Assembly (NCBI GenBank): GCA_023245335.1
Contig: JAHFKK010000001.1
Span: 1,000,019 to 1,064,018, forward strand
Source: Candidatus Gottesmanbacteria bacterium
GTDB lineage: Bacteria; Patescibacteriota; Microgenomatia; UBA10105; UBA927
Reading direction: 5' to 3'
DNA: 64,000 bases
In this document: positions 27,238 through 48,334 of the stretch, in pieces
How positions within the stretch are numbered: the first letter of the stretch is position 1
How the letters are laid out: the number at the start of each line of letters is the position of its first letter
The notes under the pieces: model-generated
The model's input: the letters and a program-made list of their open reading frames with translations, nothing else
The model's database searches: none
What the model was told of the DNA's origin: nothing
Translations under genes and position numbers: made by a program

Positions 27238-28461
27238 ATGAATATATCACTGACCGATCGATATCCTGCCCTGCGTTCCCGCGATTATCAGCTCCAGTGG
27301 ATCGGACAGTTCGTAAGTAACGCCGGTACCCAAATGCAAGTCGTGGCAATCAACTGGCAGTTATATGAGATGACGCACTCCCCGTTTGTATTGGCCATCT
27401 TAGGCGCTTCGCGGATCGTACCCGTCGTGTTGTTTTCCCTAATCGGCGGCACGATCGTCGACGCGCATAACCGGAAAAAAATACTTTATGTCACGCAAGC
27501 TGTTCAGGCAGTCATCGCGGCGCTGCAGGGATTTCTTACCTTCACCGGTCTCGCAAATCCCGTAAACCTCGTCGTGCTAAACGCGTTGCTCATCGCAGTA
27601 TACAGCCTCGATGGTCCCGCCCGGGCAGCGTTTATGCCGTCGCTCGTCAAACGCAAACACTACGGCAACGCGGTAAGCCTCAACATGATCGGGTACTACA
27701 TCTCAACCGTTGCGGGACCCGCGATCAGCGGGTTCGTCATCGCGTATCTGGGGGTAGCATCCGTATACTTTCTCGACGCTGTCTCATACGTCATTCTTTT
27801 ATTCACATTATTTGCCATCCAAGCCCACGGCAGGATCGAGGGTGATGTACAGCCCGCGAGCCTCGCAGCAATTATGGAAGGCCTGACGTTTATCAAATCC
27901 AAAACACTTATTTGGTCCACCATGCTTTTGGATTTCTTTGCCACGTTCTTTGCGGAAGCGACTATCCTCATCCCGGTATTTGCAAAAGACGTCCTTCACA
28001 TAGGCCCGGAGGGTATCGGGCTCTTGTACGCGGCCCCGTTTGTCGGCGGCACGATTATGGGTTTTGTCGCCGCTACCTACGGCAAACGCTTACATACCGG
28101 CCGCATACTCCTTTGGAGCATCATTATGTATGCTCTTGGCACCATCGTATTCGGCCTTTCTCATCTGTATTGGGTGAGCCTGGTCGCGTTAGTAGTAGTG
28201 GGCGCGGGAGACGGACTTTCCGCAGTCATCCGAAATATCATCCGACAGCTGTCAACGCCCGACCATATCCGTGGCAGGATGACTGCGATGAATCAGATAT
28301 TTTATTCCGGCGGACCTAATCTCGGCCAAGTGGAAGCAGGCGTCGTCGCCGGCCTTCTGGGCGCTCCCCTGTCCGTCATCGTCGGGGGCGTAGGGACGCT
28401 TATAGTCGTCGGCATCATGGGGTATGCAATTCCGGTATTACGCAATTATAAAGACGCCTAA
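27238..28461 (+). CDS. MFS transporter
   Basis: 407 aa, 12 TM. The G-x-[LIV]-[VI]-D-x-x-x-R-[RK] motif after TM2 (GGTIVDAHNRKK) is typical. Confidence 0.8.
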   Translation: MNISLTDRYPALRSRDYQLQWIGQFVSNAGTQMQVVAINWQLYEMTHSPFVLAILGASRIVPVVLFSLIGGTIVDAHNRKKILYVTQAVQAVIAALQGFLTFTGLANPVNLVVLNALLIAVYSLDGPARAAFMPSLVKRKHYGNAVSLNMIGYYISTVAGPAISGFVIAYLGVASVYFLDAVSYVILLFTLFAIQAHGRIEGDVQPASLAAIMEGLTFIKSKTLIWSTMLLDFFATFFAEATILIPVFAKDVLHIGPEGIGLLYAAPFVGGTIMGFVAATYGKRLHTGRILLWSIIMYALGTIVFGLSHLYWVSLVALVVVGAGDGLSAVIRNIIRQLSTPDHIRGRMTAMNQIFYSGGPNLGQVEAGVVAGLLGAPLSVIVGGVGTLIVVGIMGYAIPVLRNYKDA

Positions 28462-28472
28462 ACTCCTGTGAA

Positions 28473-29909
28473 TTGTCCTCGGCAGCTACTTCTGATAGCC
28501 TAGATAGTGTGAAGAAACATGCCGTAAAATTCGTCCATCATGCTAAACACATCGCGCACCACCTTCGAAACCATCGGGCAATCACGCGGCGTAACGTGCT
28601 TCTTTTCTTCGTGGGACTGAACATTTTCTTTCTTTTCGTCATTATGATGAATACCATGAGTTTCCCGAACACTATGGTCGGCGGCGTCAACCTGGGACTC
28701 AAAACAAAAACCTATATACGAAACTATCTGGCCGGAGTATATGGCACACCATTTAAACTCACCATCAATTCCCATACGTACGATTTGAACTATGAGCACA
28801 TCGGGGTATATATGAACCCCGATGGCGCCATAAACGAAATATTTGCACCCAATACTAAGCCTTTTCCCGAAAACGTCGGGGCGTTTGTCGCGTCGGTCTT
28901 TCAGAAGCGTCCCGTAAAGATCCCATTGTCATTCTCCCAGGAATTCTACGAATACGTCACCAAAATAAACATCGCAGGAAGCAACCACAACGATATAGTG
29001 TACGTGAATCAGGAAAATAAACAGGTGACACTCTTCACGCCCGAACAACGATATCGTATAAATACCTCCCTATTTCAGACTGAACTCACGAAGCGGTTCG
29101 GGAGACACGAAGATGCGTTACTGGTCCCGCTGGTCGAAGTACCCAATACACTTGAAAAAGACGTAGAGGCAGCAAACACCAAACTCCTTGCCGCCTATAA
29201 AGATCCTCTCACCGTGATCGTCGGGATCAACAGTGCCAACCGCTTCCTCACCCTGTCGCCTGATGACCTCCGACGTTACACGGTTGCAAGTATTTCGGCC
29301 AATTCCCACGACGTACAACTCAACGTAAATAGCAAAGCGTTTGCCCCGGATCTCTCACGGGCTCTTGCCGTGTACACCGCATCGTTTAACCCGACGCTCG
29401 CAAGCGAAAAAATCGGTGACGAGATGAAAAACGCACTGCTTACCCGTATGACCGGCTCACCCATGGATTCCATCAAGGTCGGCATAGACAACGGGCCGAA
29501 TACGGACGGAGAAATAGCCACGAAATATATAGAGATCGATATTTCCCAACAAAAACTTTTCACATTCAACCAGGGCAAACTGGTGAAAACGTACCGCGTG
29601 TCTACCGGCAAGGACTACCCTACACCAGTCGGAAGATTTGCCATTCTCAATAAGGCAGGACTCGGATACTCATCGATCTATAACGTCTGGATGCCATACT
29701 GGATGGCGTTTTCGTTTTCCGACGTCTTGCACGCCTATTTCGGAATTCATGAGCTCCCTTATTACTACACCGGGGGGACGAAGATCCAACGCCCGAGGGA
29801 CTTCATCGGAGCGCCCAATACGGGCGGGTGTGTGGCTCTGGACATCGGTGACGCGAAAGAGGTTTACCAGTTTTCCGATATCGGTACCCCGGTCGTCATT
29901 TACCAATAG
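28473..29909 (+). CDS. L,D-transpeptidase (YkuD domain) with N-terminal TM and large extracellular domain
   Basis: C-terminal catalytic motif HELPYYYTGG...SGGCVAL (here H...APNTGGCVALDIGDAKEVY). Confidence 0.8.
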   Translation: MSSAATSDSLDSVKKHAVKFVHHAKHIAHHLRNHRAITRRNVLLFFVGLNIFFLFVIMMNTMSFPNTMVGGVNLGLKTKTYIRNYLAGVYGTPFKLTINSHTYDLNYEHIGVYMNPDGAINEIFAPNTKPFPENVGAFVASVFQKRPVKIPLSFSQEFYEYVTKINIAGSNHNDIVYVNQENKQVTLFTPEQRYRINTSLFQTELTKRFGRHEDALLVPLVEVPNTLEKDVEAANTKLLAAYKDPLTVIVGINSANRFLTLSPDDLRRYTVASISANSHDVQLNVNSKAFAPDLSRALAVYTASFNPTLASEKIGDEMKNALLTRMTGSPMDSIKVGIDNGPNTDGEIATKYIEIDISQQKLFTFNQGKLVKTYRVSTGKDYPTPVGRFAILNKAGLGYSSIYNVWMPYWMAFSFSDVLHAYFGIHELPYYYTGGTKIQRPRDFIGAPNTGGCVALDIGDAKEVYQFSDIGTPVVIYQ

Positions 29910-30474
29910 CACTTGCCGAACTGCGGACTTTCTTTACAATTGCGGTTGTCGAATTGACGTACGGCAACACCATGACAACGGGCTCTATCCGGGATCCCAA
30001 ATTACGATTGGCATAATCGACCGCACGGATCTTTTGCATGAAGTGCTGATCTTCTACCTCCATGGCTATCTTATCGGGATTCAACTGCACCAGAACATGC
30101 GCATTCTCCGGTATATCATCCGGCGGAATCGCGGTTTCGTCGACAAATACGGCGTCCACGTTCTCAAATTCGCTGACCACCACATCACGGAACCGTTCAA
30201 TGGGTCGGTCCGCACCCTTATACTTCACCGCATACTCAGCGGAGGCAAGTTTGAGTAATACTAAGTCCGCGTATTTTTTTGCTTCCCGTATATGCTGGAC
30301 GTGTCCCGGATGCGTGAGATCCCATGTACCCTCAAGTAGAATAACGGTCTTGCCGCGCTCATGTGCAACTTTCACGAATTCGCACGATTCATCCCGATTG
30401 AGAAGCTTATGTATGGGAGACAACTCTACTTCTCTCAGTTTGATGCGTGACGATACGAGACGTTCAACTGCCAT
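29896..30474 (-). CDS. Cytidylyltransferase-like nucleotidyltransferase (TagD/RfaE-domain-II family; candidate glycerol-3-phosphate cytidylyltransferase)
   Basis: (T/H)xGH motif in GTWDLTHPGHVQHIREAKKYADLVLL. The ORF track extends to 30606 but those 44 N-terminal residues are Cys/Pro-rich and look non-coding, so the ATG at 30474 is preferred. Confidence 0.65.
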   Translation of the reverse strand: MAVERLVSSRIKLREVELSPIHKLLNRDESCEFVKVAHERGKTVILLEGTWDLTHPGHVQHIREAKKYADLVLLKLASAEYAVKYKGADRPIERFRDVVVSEFENVDAVFVDETAIPPDDIPENAHVLVQLNPDKIAMEVEDQHFMQKIRAVDYANRNLGSRIEPVVMVLPYVNSTTAIVKKVRSSASAIGK

Positions 30475-30669
30475 ATGTATAAAACATTGGGCAGGAGGAT
30501 AGTAGCAGGTGTGGGTGATCATGGAGTCGCCCGCTTCCAACGCTAATGCGGAGCATTTGCGGGCAGGGACCATGCACCTTTGTGGGTCAGGATGGAGTCG
30601 GACCATCCACCTCTTTCTTATCAGGAAAGCGTTCTACCGCTGAACTACTGACCCAAATGATATCCTAAG

Positions 30670-33144
30670 ATGTCAGTAATTGTATCATACGTGCGTATAG
30701 GGCCTCAATTGAAACTTCGCCTCGATGCTGTTACGCTAACGGGTATGTTTGACCGCTGGAAGCGATATCTTCCCGTTGGTATCATCATTCTTTTTTCTTT
30801 CTTCCTTTTCCGGAACTATTTTCTGAAAGGCCTGGTCCCGTTCCCGGCGAACTTACTGGTTGCGACATACGAGCCGTGGAGAAGTTATCCGGTGCCGGAA
30901 TATCCCAACGGTCCGCCGAATAAGCCCATGGGGTTTGACAACATCCGCATTTATTATCCTCTCAAAAAAGTAGCAATTGATCTCGTCAAACACGCGAAAC
31001 CTCCTTTGTGGAATCCATATAATTTCACCGGCAACCCGATACTCGCGACGTACCAGTCCGCGATATTTCACCCACTTTCATTTCTCTACCTCCTCCTTCC
31101 GCAAATCGATGCATGGAGTATTATCATCATCCTTCAGCCTATCCTTGCGGGACTTGCGATGTATGCGTTTCTTTCGGCATTGGAATTTTCGATGTCTGCG
31201 TGCCTATTGGGCGCCCTCACGTTTGCATTTTCCGGATTTTTCATCGTGTGGTGGGAAGAAGCCTTCATGTTCACCTACTCGGCATTATTCCTCCCGATCG
31301 CGCTTACCGCCGTTGAATTATTCCTCAAAAGCCGTCGCCGCATCTGGCTTGCCGTATTCGCACTGAGTCTTGCCGGTTCAATCGTATCGGGCGCATTCCA
31401 AATGACGTTTTATGTCTTCCTTTTTACGGCCGCCTGGATCACATACCGGCTGTGGCACGAAAAAAAGAAGTGGCAGTTTTTTGGGATGTTCCTGGGGGCA
31501 GGCATAATCGCCCTCCTTCTTGGAAGCGTTCATCTCCTCCCTAGCATGGAAGCATATTATCACTCCGCGCGTATATCCGCAGACGCCAAGTATATTTTTG
31601 ACGCGTACCTCCTGCCGCTTACACAGCTTATCACCCTCATCGCTCCCGACTATTTCGGCAACCCCGGCACGTATAACTATTTCGGATCAGGATTTTATCA
31701 CGAACGTATGATGTGGTTCGGCGTCGTGCCGCTTTTCTTTGTTCTCATGGAATTTATGCATCCGTCTCAAAAACGACATGCATTATTTTTCCGGATCGCA
31801 TTTCTGGTTACGCTTTCATTGGTCCTTGCTCTCCCCACGACATGGCTTCTCCTCTACTATCTCAAACTTCCGTTGCTTTCGACCCTGACCCCATCGCGCA
31901 TGATGATGCTGGTCACATTCTCGGCGGCGGTTCTTACCGCTTATGGCGTAGAAACATACTGGCAGGGAATCCAAAAACGGACGCTGGTCATAACAACGCT
32001 CCTCCTGGGAGCAAGCATTGCGGTCGCAGGCTTCTATCCTATCTACATCCATCATCTACAGCCCAAACTGACGATGTATTATATGGTGTCACTCCGAAAT
32101 CTCGTCATCCCGACGGCAAGTCTCGGCATCATCGTTATCACTCTTTTCGTGAGCCGGGTACATAAGCGACTCCGGCCGGTAGGTTTTGCTATCCTCACGG
32201 CGGTGCTACTCACCGGCAGCGTTCTGTTTGCGCAAAAATTTCTCTATTTTTCTGAACGGAGATTTATTTATCCGGCGACGCCAGTCCTTAGTGAATTGCA
32301 AAAACGCGCCGGGTTCGACCGATTTTGGACGTACGAGAATGGGTATATAGAAAAAAACTTCGCCACATACTATGGATTATTTAGTCCCGAAGGATACGAC
32401 TCCATCACCATCCGGCGGTACGGTGAACTATTGAGTTTCGCTGACTCGCACGGCGCCTCCATGACGTCTTCCCGTTCGGATGCGCTCATCCAGTCTACCG
32501 ACCATCTCAACAACATTCTCACCGATCCCTACAGGAAAAAACTTCTGGAGCTCCTGGACGTGCGGTATATCTTGCAACGGTTACTGCCTGACAGAAGCGA
32601 AAAAGCCGTATTGCCCGACCCTACGCAACTTCCGACTGTCTGGAAAGACAATACGTATGCAATTCATGAATATAAAGAGGCTCTCCCTCATGCTGCGTTA
32701 TATAGCTTGGTAGCGGTGATTCCCGACGGAAAAACAGAACTCACCGCCATGTTCGACACAACAACAGATATCCATACCCGTCTGTTTCTTGAACAAAAAC
32801 CGGAAGGATTAACCCTGAATCCCGAAGCAACAGGAACTGCTTCAATCACCGGTATACAACCGAATTCCGTCTCTATCCGGACGCAAACCACCGACGCCAT
32901 GATGCTTTTCCTTTCGGATGCATACTATCCGGGCTGGAATGCTTATATTGATAGTGTAAAAACTCCGGTGTATCGTGCGGACTATGCGTTTAGGGCCGTC
33001 GCAGTGCCCAAAGGAACCCATATAGTGATATTCAAATATGAGCCGCTGTCCTGGAAGTTAGGTCTCATACTATCGAGCATAGGAATAGTTTTCCTTGGAT
33101 TTCTCGTGCTAACAAAAAACATCACACAACTAAAAAAGAAGTAA
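30670..33144 (+). CDS. YfhO-family membrane glycosyltransferase (GT-C fold)
   Basis: 824 aa, polytopic. Conserved C-terminal YfhO signature DAYYPGWNAYIDSVKTPVYRADYAFRAVAVPKGTHIVIFKYEP. Confidence 0.8.
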   Translation: MSVIVSYVRIGPQLKLRLDAVTLTGMFDRWKRYLPVGIIILFSFFLFRNYFLKGLVPFPANLLVATYEPWRSYPVPEYPNGPPNKPMGFDNIRIYYPLKKVAIDLVKHAKPPLWNPYNFTGNPILATYQSAIFHPLSFLYLLLPQIDAWSIIIILQPILAGLAMYAFLSALEFSMSACLLGALTFAFSGFFIVWWEEAFMFTYSALFLPIALTAVELFLKSRRRIWLAVFALSLAGSIVSGAFQMTFYVFLFTAAWITYRLWHEKKKWQFFGMFLGAGIIALLLGSVHLLPSMEAYYHSARISADAKYIFDAYLLPLTQLITLIAPDYFGNPGTYNYFGSGFYHERMMWFGVVPLFFVLMEFMHPSQKRHALFFRIAFLVTLSLVLALPTTWLLLYYLKLPLLSTLTPSRMMMLVTFSAAVLTAYGVETYWQGIQKRTLVITTLLLGASIAVAGFYPIYIHHLQPKLTMYYMVSLRNLVIPTASLGIIVITLFVSRVHKRLRPVGFAILTAVLLTGSVLFAQKFLYFSERRFIYPATPVLSELQKRAGFDRFWTYENGYIEKNFATYYGLFSPEGYDSITIRRYGELLSFADSHGASMTSSRSDALIQSTDHLNNILTDPYRKKLLELLDVRYILQRLLPDRSEKAVLPDPTQLPTVWKDNTYAIHEYKEALPHAALYSLVAVIPDGKTELTAMFDTTTDIHTRLFLEQKPEGLTLNPEATGTASITGIQPNSVSIRTQTTDAMMLFLSDAYYPGWNAYIDSVKTPVYRADYAFRAVAVPKGTHIVIFKYEPLSWKLGLILSSIGIVFLGFLVLTKNITQLKKK

Positions 33145-33545
33145 TATCGCACGAACATACATATATGGCACTAGGATTTAGAATAGAAAAATTGCTTTTC
33201 GGAGAGAAGCGGGCAGAGATTAATGCGGCTGCCAGAAAAGCAGACAAGCTTTTGCGTAAACCCATACCACCTTTATTTGAAACGACGGTTCTTTATGTGG
33301 CAAGGAGCTATCTCAGTTGGGGAGCCGCTTCACAAGACAGACAACTCCAACTAGCTCAGTATATTGAAGCGGTCAGCGCAAAAATTCATATACAAACAGA
33401 GGGGAAAAAGGAGCTTAGACCAGCAAGAAAACAATCTTGAGGCGCGGAAGGTTGATGGTTGGTTAATGAGTAGATTCCGATATACGAATTTACCAACCAT
33501 CAATGTCGTGTACTCACGACGTGATTGACTGACTAATATCACTTG

Positions 33546-33617
33546 AGGCGCGGAAGGGAATCGAACCCTTGCATAGAAGTTTTGCAGACTCCCGCGTTAC
33601 CACTTCGCCACCGCGCC
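33546..33617 (-). tRNA. tRNA-Cys (GCA)
   Basis: Reverse complement folds as a cloverleaf: acceptor GGCGCGG/CCGCGCC, anticodon stem GGAGT/ACTTC with loop CTGCAAA (anticodon GCA), T-arm AAGGG-TTCGATT-CCCTT. CCA is not encoded. Confidence 0.8.
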
Positions 33618-33778
33618 ATATACACTACACTATTTCTATAGACATTCTCCCGCGTTATCCCCTTTGGGGATTGATCGGCTACTAAACTCTCGCGATAAGA
33701 TCGGGATCGTTAACTAGCCATCAAGCCAATCCCCACCGCGCCAATGTTTCTTATTGTACCAAGAACCTTCTTGCCACG

Positions 33779-36160
33779 CTAGCTTTTTCGTCGGCCAGTC
33801 CATGCAAATCCTAACCAGAATACAAACGATATTATAGATAATGCGATGCCCCAATTCAGTGACGCCGGTTCATACCGAAACATGACCGTATGTTTACCCT
33901 TGGGCACCACCACCCCCCGAAATGCATAGTTCGTCCGGTAGACCGTTACCTCGTTTTCGTCTACCGTCGCCTTCCAGCCCGGATAGTCGTTGTCGGATAA
34001 TACTAAAAACGCCATTGTCTGTGTTTGCGTATGGATACTCACACGGTCGGTCTCATAGGAAGAAATTGTAGCCGATCCAACGACCCCGTCAGTATGTATC
34101 CATCCGCTTACCGGGGTTTCGACAAACGACGTTGTAGCAAGATTCGTACCTTCCGCAAACATACTCATAAGTTCTTTGTCCGGGTCCGCAATTGATATCA
34201 CGCGGTTCGTAAGATATGCCCTTGGATATGCGGACTGCCTTTGGTATACAACCCAATTGGCATCTTCCCACAGCCGATCACAGTTCCTGGAATCTAACGG
34301 ATCTTTCGGCCTACAACTATTCATTTCTGATTTCCTGACCAGGAGTCCTTCCGTTCCGGTCATATCCCAAAACCGTTCACGGCGCTTTGAAAGCGCCGCA
34401 CTCACAGAAGCATCCGGAACTACCGTGACATCGCTTCTGAGTATTCCGTTGGATCTGTCCCCCGTATTGACATACGAAACCAGCTCGCCGTACCGCCTGA
34501 CGTATAACGGATCGTAATAATTATCGTCGTAAAAACGGTAATACGTCGCGAAATCAGTTGCAATGGACGCCGTGCCAGTATATGCCACCCTGTTAGGCGC
34601 AAACGACCGGAGCGCGGTAAGAAGTCTGTGTTGCGGCATGACATTTTGCGTGTTGGTAAATGGTATAAATTTGTACGCGTCGTAAGCACCGAATACCAAA
34701 ACAGTCATGATAACAATCCATCCGACGACGCGGCGGGAAACATTCGTATACAGTGAAATAAAAAGTGTCAGCATTATGATGCCGTAGGCCGCCGATTCGA
34801 GCATCGTATTCCGCAGAGCAATTGAGAAACACGCCGTTATAATGGGATTGTTACATGGAACATGCAATCGGACGAGTGTGATTGTGACAAAGAGTATTAT
34901 TCCCAACATCGCTCCGACGCCGATGATTAGCCACAACATAGTTCGCGTCTTCTTCACCCTCAGAAACGCATCCATTCCGAGTCCGGCAAGCATAGCTATG
35001 GCAAATGTAGCCATGCTCATGATCCGGGATGGAGCCCCGGTCGTAAGGATCGGAATCGGCAGCCGATAAAGAAACTCCGTTCCCCACCATCGGAGGGACA
35101 AGAGGACGGAACCGATAGCGACGCCGGCAAAAAATATCGGAAGCAAAGGGTGTTTCCCCTTGCGGAATACCATCGCAAATACGGCAAAGAGAAACGCACC
35201 GCTTCCGACCGATGAAACGCTTTCAATATATTCGACCCGACCCCAATAATTGTAGATCGCGGGATTGCCGAAAAAATTCGGGACGAGAACGGTGATGAAA
35301 TGCCCGATCGGGACGAGGAACTTCAAAAAAATAAATGCGGAAGTTTGGGTAGAAATCGCCGCCCTGGTCGAAAGTTCGGCAGTCGGAATGAGCTGAAATG
35401 CAACAAGCCCTAGACCCAAAATTCCTGCGATCACAAGCGTCATCCAAAGAGCAGTATCCTTCACCCTTCCGCTCTCGCGTACACGAAAAACCGCGTATGC
35501 CACAGCAACGAATAGCATGTAGAGGGATAACTGAGGGAATCCGGTCAATATAACCCAAGAAATCGCGACCGGCAGCCAGCCGACCCCACCCCTTCTTCTC
35601 AAAACGAGCCGATCAATGCTCCACAACAGAAACGGGAGTCCGGCGTACGCGTAGAGATATGTCCCGAATATGGAATTGGTGATGACATATCCCGAAACCA
35701 GCCACACTACTGCGGCAAATACCATCCCGACAGGAGTCATACCAAGGGATGCGGTATACAAAAAACTAAAGACCGCTATGGCCAGAAATTGCCCGACGTA
35801 CAGTGTTGTCCACGCGTGTGCGGGCGATGCGACGAAAAACGCGAGACTCAATGGATTTACCAAACCAAAATGTTGTATGGCAAAAAGCGGCTGACCGGCA
35901 CCATTATACGGATTCCATAACGGCAGGCGACCCTGACGCATAAGGTTTGCTGAAAGGACTTTAAAAGGAAATATCTGGCGGAAGACATCGTCTCCGATTG
36001 CTTTATGGGGAATTGCGGGTACGCCGTTTACTGCTGTGTCTGTCTTCCATGGCTCAAACCAAGCTCTTTGAAAATCTCCCGAAAACGGAACTACTCCGCG
36101 GGACCAGAGTATGGAAATGGCGACTATCGCAATAAGTACGACGGAGATATACCGACGCAT
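33779..36160 (-). CDS. YfhO-family membrane glycosyltransferase (second paralog)
   Basis: 793 aa. C-terminal DNDYPGWKATVDENEVTVYRTNYAFRGVVVPKGKHTVMFRYEP is homologous to the paralog at 30670. Confidence 0.8.
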   Translation of the reverse strand: MRRYISVVLIAIVAISILWSRGVVPFSGDFQRAWFEPWKTDTAVNGVPAIPHKAIGDDVFRQIFPFKVLSANLMRQGRLPLWNPYNGAGQPLFAIQHFGLVNPLSLAFFVASPAHAWTTLYVGQFLAIAVFSFLYTASLGMTPVGMVFAAVVWLVSGYVITNSIFGTYLYAYAGLPFLLWSIDRLVLRRRGGVGWLPVAISWVILTGFPQLSLYMLFVAVAYAVFRVRESGRVKDTALWMTLVIAGILGLGLVAFQLIPTAELSTRAAISTQTSAFIFLKFLVPIGHFITVLVPNFFGNPAIYNYWGRVEYIESVSSVGSGAFLFAVFAMVFRKGKHPLLPIFFAGVAIGSVLLSLRWWGTEFLYRLPIPILTTGAPSRIMSMATFAIAMLAGLGMDAFLRVKKTRTMLWLIIGVGAMLGIILFVTITLVRLHVPCNNPIITACFSIALRNTMLESAAYGIIMLTLFISLYTNVSRRVVGWIVIMTVLVFGAYDAYKFIPFTNTQNVMPQHRLLTALRSFAPNRVAYTGTASIATDFATYYRFYDDNYYDPLYVRRYGELVSYVNTGDRSNGILRSDVTVVPDASVSAALSKRRERFWDMTGTEGLLVRKSEMNSCRPKDPLDSRNCDRLWEDANWVVYQRQSAYPRAYLTNRVISIADPDKELMSMFAEGTNLATTSFVETPVSGWIHTDGVVGSATISSYETDRVSIHTQTQTMAFLVLSDNDYPGWKATVDENEVTVYRTNYAFRGVVVPKGKHTVMFRYEPASLNWGIALSIISFVFWLGFAWTGRRKS

Positions 36161-36193: not shown

Positions 36194-36883
36194 TTATAGC
36201 ACCGAGGAAATTTTTTCAAACGTGGCGCGGATAGCTTTGTCGGGAAACATCTGATCTTTGGTAAACTCGTTCGGCACTACGAAACACGTCACCCCTGCCG
36301 CGATTGCGGATGCCGCACCGACGGTAGAATCTTCTATCGCGATCGTCGTTTTTGGATTCGTATTGAGAAGCTCGATCGCCTTGAGGTACATATCGGGCGC
36401 CGGTTTTTTCGGCAGTCCGAAATCGCCCAGTGCCACGATAATCGGAAAATACTGAAGAAGGTTTGTCCCACGCAAATTCCGGATAACTTCCTCCCGATGG
36501 ACCTGCGAAGAAATCGCCATGAGGATACCTTTGGCATACAGGCGTTTGACTATGTCGACTGCGGGTTCGATAAGAACGATGCCATAATCCCGCTGCATTT
36601 GTTGGTACAGACCAAGTTTACGGTAATGTACCTTCAAAAAAATAGATTCAGAAAATTCCTTACCCAGACCGGTGAAGACCCGCTCATAAAATTTCAGCGG
36701 ATCGACCCCGACGCCTTCATGGACATAGAGTTCTTTGGTGAGCTCAATTCCCACTTCGGAAAGGGCGAGCTTGTGGGCGGCAAAATGATAGGATTCCGAG
36801 TCCACCAGTACGCCGTCCATATCCCACACCACGGCATATGCGTCGTCGAATAGTTTGGTAAATTGTGCGGTTTCTTCAGTCAT
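36194..36883 (-). CDS. HAD-IA hydrolase (beta-phosphoglucomutase/phosphatase-like)
   Basis: Motif I DMDGVLVDSE, motif III K....., motif IV IEDSTVG. Confidence 0.75.
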   Translation of the reverse strand: MTEETAQFTKLFDDAYAVVWDMDGVLVDSESYHFAAHKLALSEVGIELTKELYVHEGVGVDPLKFYERVFTGLGKEFSESIFLKVHYRKLGLYQQMQRDYGIVLIEPAVDIVKRLYAKGILMAISSQVHREEVIRNLRGTNLLQYFPIIVALGDFGLPKKPAPDMYLKAIELLNTNPKTTIAIEDSTVGAASAIAAGVTCFVVPNEFTKDQMFPDKAIRATFEKISSVL

Positions 36884-37561
36884 GACCGACTTATTATGGC
36901 AGATTTATCACGGATTACAATGGGATTCCCACAAAAAATCCCTGGCGGAGCCAGGGAAATTTGTTTAATCCACCCGATCTTCCTTTGCGCCTTACCTACT
37001 ATTCGTAGCGCGGCGCAAAGAGCGATCTTTAGCGGACTTCGGTGCCTTTAGCAACCGGATGGTGATAGGGTTCACCCAGAGCAATGAAAAGAAACCACAC
37101 CGCATAGAGCGGAAGCAATTATCTTTTCGTGCATAGGGTTAGGGATTTGAGAGAAAACTAGAAAAGATCATCCCGCTAAATGCGGAATATCTCGATCATG
37201 AACTAGTTTTCAAATAGAAAGGAGGTGATCCATCCCCAGCTTCGGCTAGGGATACCTTGTTACGACTTAGTCCCCATCGCTGAACTTACCTTCGACTCGT
37301 AAACGAATCTTCGGGTACTTTCAACTTTGGTGGCTTGACGGGCGGTGTGTACAAGACCCGAGAACGTATTCACCGCGGCCTGCTGATCCGCGATTACTAC
37401 CAATTCCAACTTCATGAGGTCGGGTTGCAGACCTCAATCTGAATTGAGGCGAAATTTTAGAGATTTGCTTGGCATTACTACCTTGCGTCCCGTTGTTATT
37501 CGCCATTGTAGGGTGTGTGTGGCCCAGGGCATAAGCGCCGTGCTGACTTGACGTCGTCCCC

Positions 37562-37690
37562 TCCTTCCTCCCCCTCTCTATAAACAGAAGTAAATAGTAA
37601 TGAGTAAATAGTAAGTAGATTAAAAACAAAAACGTTTTCTTTCTATTCACTACTCACTATTTACTATTCACTCTTCCGTCCATAGAGAGG
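37562..37690 (-). repeat. ~128-nt palindromic expansion replacing 16S helix 40, built from a TAAATAGTAA-type repeat unit
   Basis: It lies between GGAGACCGCC and GAGGAAGG, where E. coli has the 15-nt h40 hairpin. It forms the stem ccctctctat...atagagaggg with internal tandem repeats taaatagtaaNgag. Confidence 0.7.
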
Positions 37691-37760
37691 GGGCGGTCTC
37701 CGATGACACTTGTAACATCGGATAGGGGTTGCGCTCGTTGTCCCACTTAAGGGAACACCC

Positions 37761-37791
<31 letters not shown>

Positions 37792-37905
37792 GCTGTGCTA
37801 CCATCCTTGCGGATCCCCTCCCATTTCTGGATGGGTAAACGGTAGCATGTCAAACCCTGGTGAGGTCCTTCGCTTTGTCTCGAATTGAACCACACGCTCC
37901 ACTGG

Positions 37906-37937
<32 letters not shown>

Positions 37938-38326
37938 TAAGCTTGCGCTCGTATTCCCCAGGCGGTCTGCTTAACGCGTTAGCTTACGACAGACAGATTG
38001 CTCTGCCCATCTAGCAGACATGCGTTTAGGGCTAGGACTACGCAGGTCTCTAATCTGCTTCGCTCCCCTAGCTTTCGTGTCTCAGCGTCAGATATTGGCC
38101 AGAAAGGTGCCTTCGCCTTCGGTGTTCCTCATGATATCAACGCATTTCACTGCTTCACCATGAGTTCCCCTTTCCTCTCCAATCCTCGTAGTTTACCCAT
38201 CTCGTATCCAACGTCGAGGTTAAGCCTCGAGCTTTCAGATACGATGCGGTATACCGCCTACACGACACTTTACGCCCAGTAAATCCGGATAACGCTTGCA
38301 CCCTACGTATTACCGCGACTGCTGGC

Positions 38327-38560
38327 CTGTCACACATTGTGACAAACTTTGGACTATATCTTCATCCCGATTCGTATCGGGAGTCTCGCGTATAGTCTCT
38401 GAGGACTCTCTCCGCCAAAGGCGGAGGTTGCCTGCTGATTGTCTTGATACATGTCTGCTGTGTAGCAGAATACTTCGCGGTATATCAAGGTGTTCCAGCA
38501 TATAGCGAGATTTTCTTTCATTACATTACTGTATGACTACGCACCAAACCCCTTACCGGG
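38327..38560 (-). other. ~234-nt insertion in 16S rRNA at E. coli position ~514/515 (within the 515F primer site)
   Basis: Conserved flanks ...ACTACGTGAC | insert | GCCAGCAGTCGCGGTAATAC. The insert is hairpin-rich and has no ORF. Confidence 0.7.
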
Positions 38561-38987
38561 GTCACGTAGTTTGTAGGTGCTTATTCGCCAAAGCCTGTCG
38601 ACCTTGGCAAAAGAGGTTTACGATCCGAAAACCTTCATCCCTCACGCGGCGTCGCTCGGTCAGACTTTCGTCCATTGCCGAATATTCCCAGTTGCTGCCA
38701 TCCGTAGATGTATGGCCCGTGTCTCAGTGCCATTGTGGGGGGTCGTGCTCTCACACCCCCTATCCGTCGTCGCCTTGGTAGGCCTTTACCCCACCAACTA
38801 GCTGATAGATGCAGGGCCACTCCTCCTCCGCGCGGTTAAGCGCTTTGACCTTACGGCCTCATGCGGTATTACCCCGTCTTTCGACGAGCTATCCCACAGA
38901 AAAGGGCATGTTCCCTGCTTATACTCACCCGTCCGCCACTGTAAATTAAATCTTGCGACTCAAAAAACCGTTCGACTTGCATGCTTA

Positions 38988-39030
<43 letters not shown>

Positions 39031-39239
39031 AAAAAAATTGACGTAAGGAGCATTTGTTTGACCAAATTCTGCTTACATCAAAAAAAATCCTATCACCATT
39101 CGATTGTTAAAGTACTCTCCTGAGAGAAAACGTAGATTTTCTCCCAACGCGACCTAGTCAAGCTGGCAGGTGCTTTCGCGATTCCTGCCGTCGCTGCTTT
39201 TCCCGGTTAGTGAAAAGCGAGGTGATGCAAAGAGCGAAA

Positions 39240-40747: not shown

Positions 40748-42319
40748 ATGAAAAAAATACTGTTCTTTAGCCTCACCATTTTCCTAAGCGCCATCGCCGT
40801 ATGGTATGGCATCACCCATCACCGCGGCGTGACCTGCCCCCGATGCAACATTATCGTCATCACGGTAGACAGCATCCGCGCCGACCACCTACCCTGCTAC
40901 GGTTACGCACTAAATACCGCTCCTCATCTTTGTGCTTTTGCCGACGAAAATCTGCGCTTTACCCGCATGTTCGCAAATTCCACCTGGACACGTCCCAGTG
41001 AATTATCCATGCTGACATCTCTTTATCCGGTAAGTCATGGCATGACCGACCCTCTCCCTACTCATATGAATCCCAAAATTACGACACTGCCGCAAGTGTT
41101 GTATCGTAACGGTTATGAAACAACATTCGTGAGTAATGATCATCTGAACATGGCACTCGAGTTAGGCTTCGGACGGGGATTTCAGCACATCCAATTCACT
41201 CCGGCGATCATCAATGACGAAACGATGCACACGTGGTCGGACACGATAGACTCGATACAAACCGCGAACAAAAAACATAAACCGGCATTCGTTTTTATCC
41301 ACACGGACCATGTCCATGATTACATCGAAGAAATTCTACGGCCCCCGCAAAAATTCCCACTAGATCCGGCCTACCGGTCAAATATAAACTATCCAAAACA
41401 ATTTACCGAAGAAACCTGGAAACGTTCCATCGATTATCTTACCCACAGCATGGAGGTTGGTTGGGGAACCGACCCGATAAACGAGCAGGACGCATGGCGC
41501 ACACAACTGCGGCAGGCCAAAACATTGGACGAGGCACGTCAGGTATTTCTCCAGTTTCCAGAAACTCTCCAGTATGATCTCTATCTCAACATCGCACAGG
41601 ATGATCTCTATAAAAATAATTTTGCCGATTTCATGGAATTATGCAGACACCTCTATGATGAGAATATCCGCACCTTTGATCTATCATTTGAAAAACTCCT
41701 CAAGCGCATCGATGAGGACGGCATCAGCCGGAACACGATTGTCGTCGTAATCGGCGACCACGGACAGCTCTTGGGTGAATACGGGCTCATCGGACACATC
41801 CTCGGCATATCCAACGAGGAAATCCACGTTCCCTTTATTGCTCGGATTCCCGGACTATCATCACGTGTCATTGACGGATTGACACAGGGCATCGATCTCT
41901 ACCCCACGCTTCTGGATGTGGTGGGGATATCGCCGCCGAAGACCGTTGCCGGCATCAGTCTCCGTAAACTCTTGACGAATCAAAAAAACGCGCCGCAGAA
42001 TAAATACGTCATAAGCCAGACGCTGCTTCCGGATCACTTGGAAAGCATACAAACAGACCGTTGGCGACTTGTCGAAGGATTTTATCCCATTGGAATCTCA
42101 CGAAATCTCTACGACCTTGCACGCGATCCCAAACAACTCCACAGCGTATCCCCGACGACACAGCCCGTCGTTGATGCGCTCACCAAACTTTTAGAAACCA
42201 CCATACGCCGGCAACCCGTCTATCCGCCGGTGCAGTCGGCCTTCCCTGATTGGTTTGATGCGACTGTCCGAAAACAACGCATAGACAAAGGCTATTACTT
42301 TGACCCGCTTCATGGTTAA
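40748..42319 (+). CDS. Sulfatase-like (alkaline-phosphatase superfamily, PF00884-like) membrane-anchored protein, paralog 1; Thr-type LtaS/EptA-like candidate phosphotransferase
   Basis: N-terminal TM, then CPRCNIIVITVDSIRADHLPCYGY (metal-ligand Asp region). NSTWTRPSELSMLTSLYP sits where the sulfatase C/S-x-P-x-R motif would be. Confidence 0.75.
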   Translation: MKKILFFSLTIFLSAIAVWYGITHHRGVTCPRCNIIVITVDSIRADHLPCYGYALNTAPHLCAFADENLRFTRMFANSTWTRPSELSMLTSLYPVSHGMTDPLPTHMNPKITTLPQVLYRNGYETTFVSNDHLNMALELGFGRGFQHIQFTPAIINDETMHTWSDTIDSIQTANKKHKPAFVFIHTDHVHDYIEEILRPPQKFPLDPAYRSNINYPKQFTEETWKRSIDYLTHSMEVGWGTDPINEQDAWRTQLRQAKTLDEARQVFLQFPETLQYDLYLNIAQDDLYKNNFADFMELCRHLYDENIRTFDLSFEKLLKRIDEDGISRNTIVVVIGDHGQLLGEYGLIGHILGISNEEIHVPFIARIPGLSSRVIDGLTQGIDLYPTLLDVVGISPPKTVAGISLRKLLTNQKNAPQNKYVISQTLLPDHLESIQTDRWRLVEGFYPIGISRNLYDLARDPKQLHSVSPTTQPVVDALTKLLETTIRRQPVYPPVQSAFPDWFDATVRKQRIDKGYYFDPLHG

Positions 42320-43883
42320 ATCAGCCACTATCGGCAGTATCATATTCCTAAGTATATTCACGGTGGTTATACTTTGGCGCTCGCCTCTCAGAGCATCCCG
42401 CACCCCCGTTTGCTGGCACTGCAACGTCATCCTCATAACCGTAGATAGCCTGCGGGCGGACAGTCTCCCCTGTTATGGATACGCGAAAAATACCGCCCCG
42501 TTCATGTGTGAGTACGCAAAAAAGAATATACTATTCTCCCGAGCGTACGCACCTTCGTCCTGGACCCTGCCAAGCGAAATGTCGCTTTTCACCGGTTTAT
42601 ATCCCACCAACCACGGCATGGACACGGCGATGCAGGATATGCTGAACCCACAGATCACTACGCTCCCGATGGCTCTTCAAAAGAGCGGCTACGAAACGAC
42701 AGCGATCTCAAATGCGCAACCCAACATCGGTTTAGAACAAGGATTGGGACGCGGGTTTACGACAGTAAAAGCTACTCCAAATACTCCACATGATGCGATA
42801 CCCATGCTCCTTGAGGCAGTCGATACGATTCAAACTACAAACGACAGGCACAAGCCGGCATTTGTGTATTTTCATACCGATGGCGTACACAACTACAACA
42901 GCGGTTTCCCTGACGTGCCCTCGTCCTACCCGCTCGATCCTACTTATCATCCGCCGATGATGCCCAAAGACATGTACGCATTTACCCAAAATACGTGGGA
43001 CGTGATGCTTGATCATCTTCTATGGGTAACAAACGTGGATGGTAACAAAAATATTGACGACCCATATACGCGCAGCTATACGCACCTTATGAACGCAAAG
43101 ACACTTTCAGAGGCGAAAACGGTGTTTGACTCGCTGCCGTCCGCCGACCGGAATGCAATCAGCTGGGAAAGCGGTAATGATAAAGTACGGGAATTTCTCG
43201 GATCGGATTACGCGCCGCTTTCCCGGCACCTCTATGACGAAGCCGTCCGAAACGTCGATACCTATATGACACAGGTATTCACGCGTCTTGCCGAACGGAA
43301 TCTGGATAAAAATACGATCGTCATCATCACCTCAGAACACGGAGAATTCCTGGGAGAACGCGGACTTTTCGGTCACGGGACGCAATTTTTTGATCCCGAA
43401 ACCCATGTCCCGCTCATTATGCATGTACCCAACGTTTCGCAAAAGACGGTCACGGGACTCACATCCCTTCTTGACGTCTATGCTACCGTTATTGACCTCC
43501 TCGAACTCCGCGTACGGGCCCCCGCAACGAGTGTCAGCCAAGCAAAAACGCTCTTCCTCAAACGTCCTGCGTCTGCCCGCACGTTTGTCATCAGTGAATG
43601 GTTCAGCAACATGCACAATAAAAGCATACGCACGAACGAGTGGCACCTCTTAGAAACACGGAGCCCAAGCGGAGAAGCAATCCGCGAACTGTATCATATT
43701 CTGTTCGATCCGTCCGAAACGACCAATGTCGCCTCTACCAACGCTTCTGTCGTCGCGGCCCTTTCGAAACTCCTTCGCGACACACCGTATTCCGAACAAC
43801 TCTACGAACCAGTCTCCCGATCGTTTCCGGACTGGATCGACGAGGCACATCGCAAAAAACTCATAGAAACAGGGTATTATTAA
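42300..43883 (+). CDS. Sulfatase-like Thr-type alkaline-phosphatase superfamily protein, paralog 2
   Basis: CWHCNVILITVDSLRADSLPCYGY; SSWTLPSEMSLFTGLYP; C-terminal WIDEAHRKKLIETGYY. Confidence 0.75.
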   Translation: MTRFMVKSATIGSIIFLSIFTVVILWRSPLRASRTPVCWHCNVILITVDSLRADSLPCYGYAKNTAPFMCEYAKKNILFSRAYAPSSWTLPSEMSLFTGLYPTNHGMDTAMQDMLNPQITTLPMALQKSGYETTAISNAQPNIGLEQGLGRGFTTVKATPNTPHDAIPMLLEAVDTIQTTNDRHKPAFVYFHTDGVHNYNSGFPDVPSSYPLDPTYHPPMMPKDMYAFTQNTWDVMLDHLLWVTNVDGNKNIDDPYTRSYTHLMNAKTLSEAKTVFDSLPSADRNAISWESGNDKVREFLGSDYAPLSRHLYDEAVRNVDTYMTQVFTRLAERNLDKNTIVIITSEHGEFLGERGLFGHGTQFFDPETHVPLIMHVPNVSQKTVTGLTSLLDVYATVIDLLELRVRAPATSVSQAKTLFLKRPASARTFVISEWFSNMHNKSIRTNEWHLLETRSPSGEAIRELYHILFDPSETTNVASTNASVVAALSKLLRDTPYSEQLYEPVSRSFPDWIDEAHRKKLIETGYY

Positions 43884-43896
43884 AATAATAAAGACC

Positions 43897-45477
43897 ATGA
43901 AAATACACCGGGGGTTCATCGTCATTTGTATCATCCTTCTCATAGGATTCATCGTCTTCATGCGCGAAATGCTCCATCCTCTCTCGTATCGAAATTCCTC
44001 CGCCTTATGCTGGAAATGTAATGTGGTAATTATCGCGATCGACCTTCTACGCGCAGACAGCCTCCCCTGCTATGGGTACCGCTTCGATACCGCCCCGAAT
44101 TTGTGCGCGTACAGCAACAATAACATCCAGTTTTCCCGAGCGTATGCGACATCGTCATGGACGCAACCAAGCGAGGCTTCACTGTTTACCGGACTTTACC
44201 TGCACAGTCACGGCATGAGCGCATCCATGCGCACGATGCTCAATCCCCAGGTCGCGACGTTACCAAAAATTCTATATGCTCATGGCTACGAAACTATCGC
44301 CGTTTCTAACATACAGCCGAACGTCGGCTTGGAAATGGGCTTAGGTAAAGGTTTTACGTCGGTTCGGTTGATCCCCGATACTCCCAATGATTCTGTACGG
44401 GGACTGCTTGGGGCGATCGACGCCATACAAAATGCCAATAATCATCGACGGCCGGCATTCGTGTTTTACCATACGGATACGGTCAGGGATTATCTCAATG
44501 ACATATCCGACCCCCCATCTTCATTTTCATTTGATCCCGTCTACCACTCACCGGCGTTACCTAAAAATATCTACGAGTTCACTGAGCATACATGGACGGT
44601 AATGCGCGACCATCTGCTCTATATCATAAATGTCGATACGCTTCGCGACAAAGACCGTACGTACAGCAAACTGTACGACAAGCTCCAAAACGCAAAAACA
44701 CTTGCAGATGCACGGAAGGTATATGATGCATTACCGGCGTCAGAACAGGGCGAGATTATTTGGGAAAGCGGACAGGCGACCGTACGAACAACACTCGGTA
44801 ATCGCTACGCACCGTTTGTCCGACACCTCTACGATGATTCTGTACGTACCATAGACGACGCCCTGCGTCCGGCTATAGAAAAACTCTCACAGCGCGCGCT
44901 AAGTCGTCGCACCGTGGTGATCATAACGTCAGAACACGGTGAATATCTGGGGGAACGCGGCATCTTCGGCCACACTCAGCCGTTATTTGAACCGGAGACG
45001 CACGTTCCGCTTATTATGCATATCCCGAAAATATCTAAGGCCCGCGTAGAAACGCTCGCTTCACTCATTGATATCTACCACACCGTCTTCGATCTCATCG
45101 GCGTACGTACGGCCATTCCGAAAAGCAGCATTAGTCAAATACCGGCAATACTGCATGACACGCGCGAACCGGGACGAACGTTTGTCATAAGCGAATGGGC
45201 GCATACTCACCGTGACGAGAGTATCCGTACAAACGAGTGGCACTTCATGATGCGATGGACCTCTAATATCATGACGGAGGAGTTGTATGACCTATCCACC
45301 GATCCGACCGAAACCAAGAATGTTGCTTCTACTCATCCGAGCGTAGTGAAATCCTTGAAAGAAACGCTCTACCTGACGCTCGGCTTGGAACCCGTGTATA
45401 CACCTATCAATCTATCTTTTCCAAACTGGATTGACGAGGCTCATCGGAAAAAACTGATTGAGACTGGATACTACTAG
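43897..45477 (+). CDS. Sulfatase-like Thr-type alkaline-phosphatase superfamily protein, paralog 3
   Basis: CWKCNVVIIAIDLLRADSLPCYGY; SSWTQPSEASLFTGLY. The C-terminal 16 aa are identical to paralog 2. Confidence 0.75.
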   Translation: MKIHRGFIVICIILLIGFIVFMREMLHPLSYRNSSALCWKCNVVIIAIDLLRADSLPCYGYRFDTAPNLCAYSNNNIQFSRAYATSSWTQPSEASLFTGLYLHSHGMSASMRTMLNPQVATLPKILYAHGYETIAVSNIQPNVGLEMGLGKGFTSVRLIPDTPNDSVRGLLGAIDAIQNANNHRRPAFVFYHTDTVRDYLNDISDPPSSFSFDPVYHSPALPKNIYEFTEHTWTVMRDHLLYIINVDTLRDKDRTYSKLYDKLQNAKTLADARKVYDALPASEQGEIIWESGQATVRTTLGNRYAPFVRHLYDDSVRTIDDALRPAIEKLSQRALSRRTVVIITSEHGEYLGERGIFGHTQPLFEPETHVPLIMHIPKISKARVETLASLIDIYHTVFDLIGVRTAIPKSSISQIPAILHDTREPGRTFVISEWAHTHRDESIRTNEWHFMMRWTSNIMTEELYDLSTDPTETKNVASTHPSVVKSLKETLYLTLGLEPVYTPINLSFPNWIDEAHRKKLIETGYY

Positions 45478-47713: not shown

Positions 47714-48334
47714 TTATGGAAGCGATCCTTCTGCCTGTTTCATGATTTCGTAAAGGATGATGCCGCAGCTGACCATCACGTTGAGGCTTATGTTAATCCC
47801 CCACATGGGCATCTCTACGATGAGATCTGCCATATCAAGCACCTCGGAAGAAACGCCTTTTGTTTCGTTCCCGACAACGATCGCCAAGGGCAACGCATAT
47901 CGTACATCGTAAAACCGTTTGCTTCTTTTATCCTGTTCGACCGCCACGACGGTAAGCTTCGGGTTCGTCGCCTTGAGCGTCAAAATAGCCGCGGCTGCGG
48001 TCGTCGCATATTCCCAGTTTACCCAACCGGTCGTGTTAATAGACGCTTTTTTTATTCTGGAGTTCGGGGGGGTCAGCGTCTCGCCGCAAAGGATGACTTT
48101 TTCAGCTGCAACCGCATCGGCAAGCCGGAAAATCGATCCCACATTATACGTATCCAATACGTTATCGACGATAATAATAATCGGATTTTTTGTAATTGCC
48201 CGTTGCACGTCAGCATCCGGTACGGTCGTACGAAGTTCTCGTGCATTCAGTTTGATCATGGACTGATTATACTCGGAAATACGTGATACTATACATACCA
48301 TACGGTCACCGTTCATATGAAATCTACTCAACAA
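47714..48334 (-). CDS. TrmH/SpoU-family RNA 2'-O-methyltransferase
   Basis: SPOUT motifs: IIIVDNVLDTYNVGSIFR, VVGNETKGVS, and MPMWGINISLNV (knot). Confidence 0.8.
   Translation of the reverse strand: MLSRFHMNGDRMVCIVSRISEYNQSMIKLNARELRTTVPDADVQRAITKNPIIIIVDNVLDTYNVGSIFRLADAVAAEKVILCGETLTPPNSRIKKASINTTGWVNWEYATTAAAAILTLKATNPKLTVVAVEQDKRSKRFYDVRYALPLAIVVGNETKGVSSEVLDMADLIVEMPMWGINISLNVMVSCGIILYEIMKQAEGSLP

Follow-up and report, generated by a model that had tools for sequence, protein, structure and literature searches.

The 64,000-nucleotide stretch of Candidatus Gottesmanbacteria contig JAHFKK010000001.1 analyzed here (the window) derives from an ultra-small bacterium of the Microgenomates group, within the candidate phyla radiation (CPR)/Patescibacteria. 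An initial annotation had combined an HxGH nucleotidyltransferase (NT) gene, an adjacent YkuD L,D-transpeptidase gene and two genes for YfhO-family GT-C glycosyltransferases, which flank a tRNA-Cys gene, into a single module for cytidine diphosphate (CDP)-alditol-dependent, teichoic acid-like glycosylation. All of these genes exist at the coordinates reported (Table 1), and the family-level assignments hold. The region is not one module, however. It consists of a conserved backbone of genes beside a variable slot for surface-glycan genes, and the NT, as judged from its sequence, descends from the HldC/RfaE-domain-II branch of its superfamily. A conserved backbone with an HldC-derived NT beside a variable YfhO/glycan slot is the overall explanation that we favor, with somewhat better than even confidence. 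What remains of the proposed module is a lineage-restricted HldC-family variant next to ordinary CPR YfhO glycosyltransferases.

Family placement of the nucleotidyltransferase

The NT scored 21.1 bits against the Pfam family CTP_transf_like, for which the cutoff is 21. Its best NCBIfam models were HldE and rfaE_dom_II (E values of about 1e-13), both of which aligned over nearly the whole protein. The full-length rfaE_dom_II match (E value of 2.4e-13) amounted to 50.2 bits and did not reach the equivalog cutoff of 181.5 bits, whereas the TagD model, TIGR01518, matched with 21.9 bits (E value of 1.5e-4) over residues 45 to 110 only, compared to a cutoff of 165.4 bits. All 29 aligned family members matched rfaE_dom_II in the same pattern as the NT of the window. 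When PDB sequences were searched with the family profile, the single full-length match was HldC of Burkholderia pseudomallei (BpHldC; 59.7 bits, residues 41 to 185), followed by a RibL-like protein of Thermoplasma volcanium (3glv; 41.5 bits); TagD (33 bits), CCT and ECT aligned over the first approximately 70 core residues only. The top Foldseek match of the NT was 5xf2 (E value of 3.8e-10), HldC being the best structural match. Among 1.84 billion representative proteins searched by profile, two family representatives scored 324 and 242 bits, after which the scores dropped to 160 bits. The 10 closest nonfamily representatives that were scanned all classified as RfaE-II, and one of them was a GmhB-HldC fusion.

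A small neighbor-joining tree, in which TagD and RibL were represented by few references and the outgroups were chosen by similarity to the family, placed the NT family inside the RfaE-II radiation as a monophyletic group (100 of 100 bootstraps). All 100 bootstraps kept both TagD sequences out of the clade formed by the family and HldC, and 73 of 100 kept the RibL-like pair out of it. The Bacillus subtilis TagD sequence used in these comparisons was checked against 1coz; the Methanocaldococcus jannaschii RibL sequence in the tree was a provisional reference. Profile scores, motifs, structure ranking and tree all speak against the initial assignment of the NT as a TagD-like cytidylyltransferase, which was rejected. 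Clustering with ADP-heptose enzymes, an outcome that the initial annotation had itself named as refuting its interpretation, is instead what the rfaE_dom_II matches, the nearest representatives and the tree display.

The assignment to TagD was part of a wider explanation, in which the NT is a CTP:glycerol-3-phosphate cytidylyltransferase whose CDP-glycerol enters a teichoic-like polymer that is then glycosylated by the two YfhO proteins. We regard this as very improbable. The NT shares with TagD (TIGR01518; PDB 1coz and 2b7l) the HxGH Rossmann-like superfamily, and the first approximately 70 residues of the catalytic core can be aligned, but the HxGH motif of the NT (T-H55-P-G57-H58), invariant in the family, occurs superfamily-wide and so has no discriminating power for TagD. 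The NT is 60 residues longer than TagD and lacks both of its signatures, RTEGISTT and the phosphate-binding lysines K44-x-K46: PRTEGISTT and QKQKK of TagD correspond to LPYVNSTT and Y-K86-G-A-D-R90-P in the NT, and the KGxxRP contained in the latter stretch of the NT is of the HldC type. The genetic context of TagD is likewise missing, as no match to TagB/TagF (PF04464) was obtained among the approximately 60 window open reading frames (ORFs) scanned or among the called genes of related loci. Synthesis of CDP-ribitol had also been ascribed to the TagD/RfaE-II family. The enzyme that makes this compound is TarI, a protein of IspD-like fold, and HxGH enzymes are not known to make it.

Another alternative is that the NT is an adenylyltransferase of cofactor salvage (a RibL-like flavin mononucleotide enzyme, PPAT or NMNAT), is unrelated to the envelope and lies near YfhO by coincidence. 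The RibL features ARD, LGxDQ and HSS were not found in the NT by column comparison, and the PPAT and NMNAT models gave weak matches that were limited to the N-terminal part. In addition, the narrow distribution of the family, described below, would be odd for a core cofactor step, and a glycan gene (YfhO or Bac_transf) lies upstream of the NT in eight of the nine related loci that extend in this direction. We consider the cofactor explanation unlikely, although deserving of some weight.

Catalytic residues and substrate pocket

HldC and RfaE domain II are beta-sugar-1-phosphate adenylyltransferases, which convert a nucleoside triphosphate (NTP) and a phosphorylated substrate (X-phosphate) to the nucleoside diphosphate (NDP) derivative NDP-X and pyrophosphate. 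Invariant residues of the NT family include H55, G57, H58, K86-G87, R90-P91 and T176, and S175 is nearly so. A column comparison of 41 family sequences with 44 stand-alone RfaE-II-like representatives indicated that the catalytic apparatus has been kept (G49, D52, H55, G57, H58, K86-G87, R90-P91, R96, D107, D134, D142 and S175-T176-T177), and the NT looks catalytically competent on these grounds.

The residues predicted to bind the second substrate present a different picture. For BpHldC, the motifs TNG, NSD, KG and ExTP, along with KGG, were proposed to contact heptose-1-phosphate by docking (PMC7993394). Three of these five motifs are replaced in the NT family, each at 71 to 100%, and only KG is kept. 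TNG is changed to [VLI]-E48-G, NSD is changed to A77-S78-A79, and KGG-D is changed to M-E139-[IV]-E141-D142, with a charge reversal from K to E139. The 44 RfaE-II-like representatives, by comparison, retain the N of the first motif (77%), N-S-D of the second (80, 86 and 95%) and K-G of the third (68 and 66%). Two aromatic residues are new and present in 100% of the family, W51 in place of the Phe of GxFD and Y81 in place of a Ser, and an insert of seven residues (119 to 125, with N124-A125 invariant) is unique to it. The predicted pocket of the NT is unusually acidic (E48, E139 and E141) and aromatic (the invariant W51 and Y81), and the second-substrate pocket looks rebuilt.

These substitutions bear on whether the NT is a true NDP-heptose synthase that serves a surface glycan. 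All measures agree on HldC/RfaE-II as the closest family, and heptose nucleotidyltransferases occur well beyond producers of lipopolysaccharide (PMC11573728). They carry the motif (F/L)XXGXSTT (PMC11461863, PMC11573728), which the L-x-x-x-x-STT end of the NT resembles in part: its C-terminal stretch, L170-P-Y-V-N-S175-T-T, has the L and STT but lacks the G, and position 5 is not an Arg. The gap between 50 bits and the equivalog cutoff, together with the replaced and in one case charge-reversed contact motifs, argues against this explanation. So does gene content, since neither the window nor the 10 related loci contain GmhA, HldA or GmhB. Such genes surround a true RfaE-II protein (P0044), a distant match with 34% identity that lies in a heptose cluster with a GmhA-like SIS protein, a PfkB kinase, an epimerase and GT9. 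The NT family is confined to a small CPR clade. Synthesis of an NDP-heptose appears distinctly unlikely.

Distribution of the nucleotidyltransferase family

The NT family is carried by 7 of 185,579 GTDB species representatives and collapses to two representatives at 50% identity. The 52 to 79% identity among its members reflects a small clade and not unusual conservation. Named homologues of the NT and of the first YfhO protein (YfhO-1) belong to Woesebacteria, Gottesmanbacteria, Roizmanbacteria and Levybacteria.

A few individual records deserve mention. The NT gene is tandemly duplicated in locus L010 (142-708 and 723-1292), where the two copies are 46% identical. On a metagenomic contig, P0045 (L025 1475-2485) has a canonical RfaE-II domain N-terminal to an NT-family-like domain; its neighbors, a glutamine amidotransferase and unknown genes, form an uninformative context. 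Two loci, L020 (CAZXHY010000006.1) and L022 (CAZHOQ010000003.1), come from MAG records titled "uncultured Gammaproteobacteria bacterium" and show the Microgenomates-specific order NT, YkuD, MFS_3, RNase_H_2; the taxonomic labels of both look wrong.

A conserved backbone beside a variable slot

Gene calls, tRNA scans and tblastn served to compare 10 related loci. Most of them share a backbone that consists of tRNA-Cys, tRNA-Ile and the NT, followed by YkuD and MFS_3 genes on the opposite strand. The order of the latter two is variable, and RNase_H_2 and Cmk follow them. Of the 10 loci, 8 have a YkuD homologue downstream of the NT. In L001, L003 and L009, tRNA-Cys, tRNA-Ile and the NT succeed one another on one strand, which is likely the ancestral arrangement. 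The window differs in that YfhO-1, encoded on the opposite strand, interrupts the pair of tRNA genes.

The content of the slot upstream of the NT differs from locus to locus. It comprises a HAD gene, YfhO-2 and YfhO-1 in the window and in L018, a HAD gene and a single YfhO in L019, a single YfhO-2-like gene in L001, and a single YfhO-1 gene in L006, where the tRNA genes are inverted. In L003 and L021, the slot holds an unknown 564-residue protein and a Bac_transf phosphoglycosyltransferase; in L020, Bac_transf stands directly upstream of the NT, where the contig ends; and in L009, the slot is empty. In L003, L020 and L021, the Bac_transf gene shares the strand of the NT and precedes it by approximately 70 bp. 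Because the slot varies in this way among relatives, the NT and YfhO are not invariably paired. Where the loci extend upstream, the neighbor of the NT in eight of nine is nevertheless an enzyme of polyprenyl-phosphate-dependent glycan synthesis (YfhO or Bac_transf), a weak guilt-by-association hint at a role of the NT in an envelope glycan.

The YfhO paralogs

With 112.4 and 63.5 bits, respectively, YfhO-1 and YfhO-2 both pass the gathering threshold of PF09586 (28.5 bits). The two proteins are 30% identical from end to end (E value of 5e-105). In an alignment of 22 sequences that includes both paralogs, P69-W70, K85, G88-x-D90, a PLWNPY stretch and further positions were invariant. D90 corresponds to the conserved acidic residue of the predicted first extracytoplasmic loop and is presumed to be catalytic; judging from these residues, both paralogs are probably active. 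The presence of two diverged copies suggests two sugars or two acceptors.

In Firmicutes, YfhO enzymes use a C55-phosphate (C55-P)-linked sugar, which is made from a uridine diphosphate (UDP)-sugar by a GT-A enzyme (CsbB) and flipped by GtcA, and they decorate lipoteichoic acid (LTA) in B. subtilis and Staphylococcus aureus and wall teichoic acid in Listeria (PMC5836110, PMC8035078). The streptococcal YfhO-family proteins PgtC2 and PgfM1/M2, on the other hand, are O-glycosyltransferases that act on membrane and surface proteins, in regions rich in Ser/Thr (PMC12041528, PMC5856776). Since YfhO proteins take C55-P-sugars and not CDP-alditols as donors and glycosylate proteins as well, they have no need of a CDP-alditol, and their presence does not imply teichoic acid (PMC8035078, PMC12041528).

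The window paralogs share with the CsbB/GtcA/YfhO system of Bacillus, Staphylococcus and Listeria the PF09586 family, a length of about 800 residues and the acidic residue of the first loop (PMC5836110, PMC8035078). The similarity to the Firmicute enzymes is at the profile level only, however, and the two paralogs occupy a tRNA-flanked variable slot at which neither an adjacent GT-A or GtrA gene in the window nor a teichoic acid acceptor is evident. PgtC2 and PgfM1/PgfM2 belong to the same YfhO family (PMC12041528, PMC5856776), but YfhO-2 gave only weak C-terminal matches to the PgfM1 and PgfM2 models, with 18 bits compared to equivalog cutoffs of 1,400 to 1,500. A sequence search found no solved YfhO structure, and a literature search found no paper on YfhO in Patescibacteria. 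Joint mention of CPR, Microgenomates and teichoic acid was limited to one paper, in two versions.

Homologues of YfhO-1 number 236 and, among the named ones, are distributed Microgenomates-wide. Its orthologues in Roizmanbacteria and Levybacteria are located in large clusters that contain GT-C genes (YfhO, PMT_2 and GT87), short GT2 genes and sugar-modifying genes (DegT, a hexapeptide acetyltransferase and a GFO oxidoreductase). Neither an HxGH NT nor a Glyphos_transf/teichoic acid polymerase was found in these clusters. Short GT2 genes flank the YfhO orthologues in L016 and L017. In the window, the approximately 60 ORFs scanned yielded no match to GT2 (PF00535) or GtrA (PF04138). When the GT2 adjacent to YfhO in Roizmanbacteria was used as a query, the best 120 of 3,793 matches included none on the source contig.

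Proposed role and its weighing

The favored explanation, a conserved backbone with an HldC-derived NT beside a variable slot, can be translated into a tentative mechanism. The NT would condense a sugar phosphate or alcohol phosphate, which would be neither heptose-1-phosphate nor glycerol-3-phosphate, with an NTP to form an NDP-activated donor. This donor would most likely feed cytoplasmic steps in the synthesis of a polyprenyl-phosphate-linked envelope glycan. By analogy to the characterized enzymes, each YfhO would move a sugar from a polyprenyl-phosphate-sugar to an extracytoplasmic acceptor, for which proteins, wall glycopolymers and lipid-anchored polymers are candidates, and the carrier would be recycled by UppP and two nearby PAP2 phosphatases. 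Nothing in the region requires or indicates a polyol-phosphate (teichoic) polymer.

Several points weigh against this explanation. Since the NT converges with YkuD and diverges from YfhO-1, the window offers no evidence of an operon, and no GT2 or GtrA partner of the YfhO proteins was found within its 64 kb. The link between the NT and an envelope glycan comes only from its neighborhood, and synteny in these genomes is conserved overall, regardless of function. The tree is small and poor in TagD and RibL references, and its RibL-like split has only 73% bootstrap support. The heptose-contact motifs, moreover, derive from docking and not from a substrate complex (PMC7993394), and their loss does not strictly exclude heptose-1-phosphate as a substrate.

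The acidic and aromatic residues of the predicted pocket also accommodate a bolder idea, to which we assign a low but appreciable probability. The NT may be a clade-specific, HldC-derived invention that activates a phosphoester new to the fold, for instance, a phosphorylated sugar or alcohol with an amino or cationic group. The tRNA-flanked slot would then be a site at which YfhO/phosphoglycosyltransferase cassettes are swapped among related ultra-small bacteria, varying the surface glycan built from the donor that the NT makes.

The envelope chemistry of CPR/Patescibacteria is almost wholly inferred from annotation, and labeling the NT as TagD would wrongly suggest teichoic acids in Microgenomates. 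The comparison of loci also shows that a tRNA-flanked site carries YfhO-type GT-C genes as variable cargo and that these are not fixed partners of the NT. The NT subfamily, with its seven GTDB species, constitutes a tractable target for finding which activated precursor these organisms use.

Gene layout and transcription units

The features of the region are listed in Table 1. The initial annotation had listed the genes correctly but overlooked the tRNA-Ile(GAT) gene between the NT and YfhO-1, which lies 107 bp upstream of the NT gene on the same strand. YfhO-1 is divergent from both of them. The 3' ends of the convergent YkuD and NT genes overlap by 14 bp. The HAD gene and YfhO-2 share a strand, with the HAD gene 34 bp upstream, and are probably cotranscribed; a terminator-like hairpin (36939-36957) stands between the HAD gene and the 16S rRNA gene. 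Because the strands alternate and tRNA genes lie in between, the NT, YfhO-1 and HAD/YfhO-2 form three separate transcription units. The idea of a single-operon glycosylation module was rejected on this basis and because YfhO neighbors come and go among relatives. A scan for sigma-70-type promoters was at chance level (13 found compared to 12.4 expected) and thus uninformative on the units. No island was seen in GC content, and an Rfam scan of 26 to 42 kb detected no regulatory RNA upstream of the NT gene, its matches being confined to the two tRNAs and the intron-containing 16S rRNA.

Table 1. Features of the NT region and of the neighboring sulfatase-family array (positions within the window)
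Feature	Position	Strand	Remarks
MFS_3 transporter	27238-28461	+	Backbone member; Pfam and locus comparison
YkuD L,D-transpeptidase	28473-29909	+	PF03734, E value of 3.9e-20
HxGH nucleotidyltransferase (NT), 192 amino acids (aa)	29896-30474	-	HldC/RfaE domain II-derived subfamily
tRNA-Ile(GAT)	30582-30654	-	ARAGORN and Rfam, 64.6 bits
YfhO-1, GT-C, 824 aa as ORF	30670-33144	+	PF09586, E value of 2.9e-32
Small ORF, 91 aa	33165-33440	+	20 bp 3' of YfhO-1; without family match
tRNA-Cys(GCA)	33545-33617	-	tRNA scan and Rfam; between the two YfhO genes
YfhO-2, GT-C, 793 aa	33779-36160	-	PF09586, E value of 1.7e-17
HAD-IA hydrolase, beta-phosphoglucomutase/sugar-phosphatase subfamily	36194-36883	-	HAD_2, E value of 1.6e-25
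16S rRNA gene	37218-39036	-	1,297 bits; intron-interrupted
Group I intron in 16S rRNA gene	38327-38573	-	RF00028, 73.5 bits
Sulfatase-family paralog 1	40748-42319
Sulfatase-family paralog 2	42300-43883
Sulfatase-family paralog 3	43897-45477
Sulfatase-family paralog 4	45474-47027	-
Sulfatase-family paralog 5	48317-49873

The start codons of two genes required attention. The longest ORF of the NT spans 29896-30606 (minus strand). Since every homologue begins with MAVERLV and the longer ORF enters the tRNA-Ile gene, the predicted start is the ATG at 30474, which yields 192 residues. The public annotation of the NT (P0001) has 225 residues, starts directly after tRNA-Ile (extra stretch, 30475-30573) and is 33 residues longer than every homologue; its start codon has probably been miscalled. 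YfhO-1 is annotated from 30670, just 15 bp off tRNA-Ile. As its homologues measure 793 to 804 residues, translation probably starts at the ATG at 30745, giving 799 residues. The 91-residue ORF downstream of YfhO-1 may not be a real gene.

The HAD gene, the 16S rRNA gene and the sulfatase-family array

L018 and L019 retain the HAD gene beside the YfhO slot, and it looks like a backbone member adjoining the 16S rRNA gene. Acceptance of beta-glucose-1-phosphate by BpHldC (PMC7993394) drew attention to the idea that the HAD protein is a beta-phosphoglucomutase that supplies beta-hexose-1-phosphate to the NT. With 99.5 bits against TIGR02009, it remained below the beta-phosphoglucomutase cutoff (153 bits), and the idea was set aside as one of low probability. 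The cap residues of Lactococcus lactis beta-phosphoglucomutase that handle the second phosphate presumably are not conserved in the HAD protein, as judged by eye.

The 16S rRNA gene lies between the HAD/YfhO-2 unit and a PAP2 gene with the five-gene sulfatase-family array; no 23S rRNA gene was detected within 26 to 42 kb. The array begins approximately 4.6 kb from YfhO-2, with the HAD gene, the 16S rRNA gene, an ORF of 193 residues and the PAP2 gene in between. Its members are 28 to 42% identical to the first. The initial annotation had described it as a Thr-type, LtaS-like array 4 kb away. The distance is about right, and the formylglycine Cys/Ser at the nucleophile position is indeed replaced by an invariant Thr81, but the proteins are closest to S1 sulfatases and lie beyond the 16S rRNA gene. 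Their best PDB relatives were S1 sulfatases and phosphonate monoester hydrolases, and no LtaS chain was among the top 60 PDB matches. The Arg of the motif is replaced by Glu or Asp, and a Cys-rich stretch (C30, C33, C50 and C62) is conserved. By eye, each protein has one N-terminal hydrophobic segment, in contrast to the five-helix domain of LtaS. From their sequences, the proteins may well be ectoenzymes that handle phosphoesters or phosphodiesters. The array is no evidence for an LTA synthase, and its sulfatase-like character is a further argument against a TagD-type role of the NT.

Other genes of the neighborhood

The cell envelope theme of the initial annotation is reasonable, in that the neighborhood contains genes for UppP, two PAP2 proteins, a PMT_2 GT-C protein, GlmS, GT4, PBP2 and MreB; support for a CDP-alditol/teichoic acid module does not follow from it. 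Large ORFs of 564 to 640 residues without a Pfam match occur among the envelope genes (window 50563-52485, plus strand; L003 6985-8679; L001 5452-7230). The window ORF sits after UppP, and those of the relatives lie in the variable slot upstream of the NT. These proteins could be unrecognized membrane glycosyltransferases.

Two gene fusions were observed elsewhere in the window. One of them (3710-4819, minus strand; 369 residues) joins a nucleoside 2-deoxyribosyltransferase to a thymidylate kinase. The other (13260-14789, minus strand; 509 residues) combines MtrA-like, thymidylate synthase-like and pterin-binding DUF4346 domains and is kept in the related loci L003 to L005.

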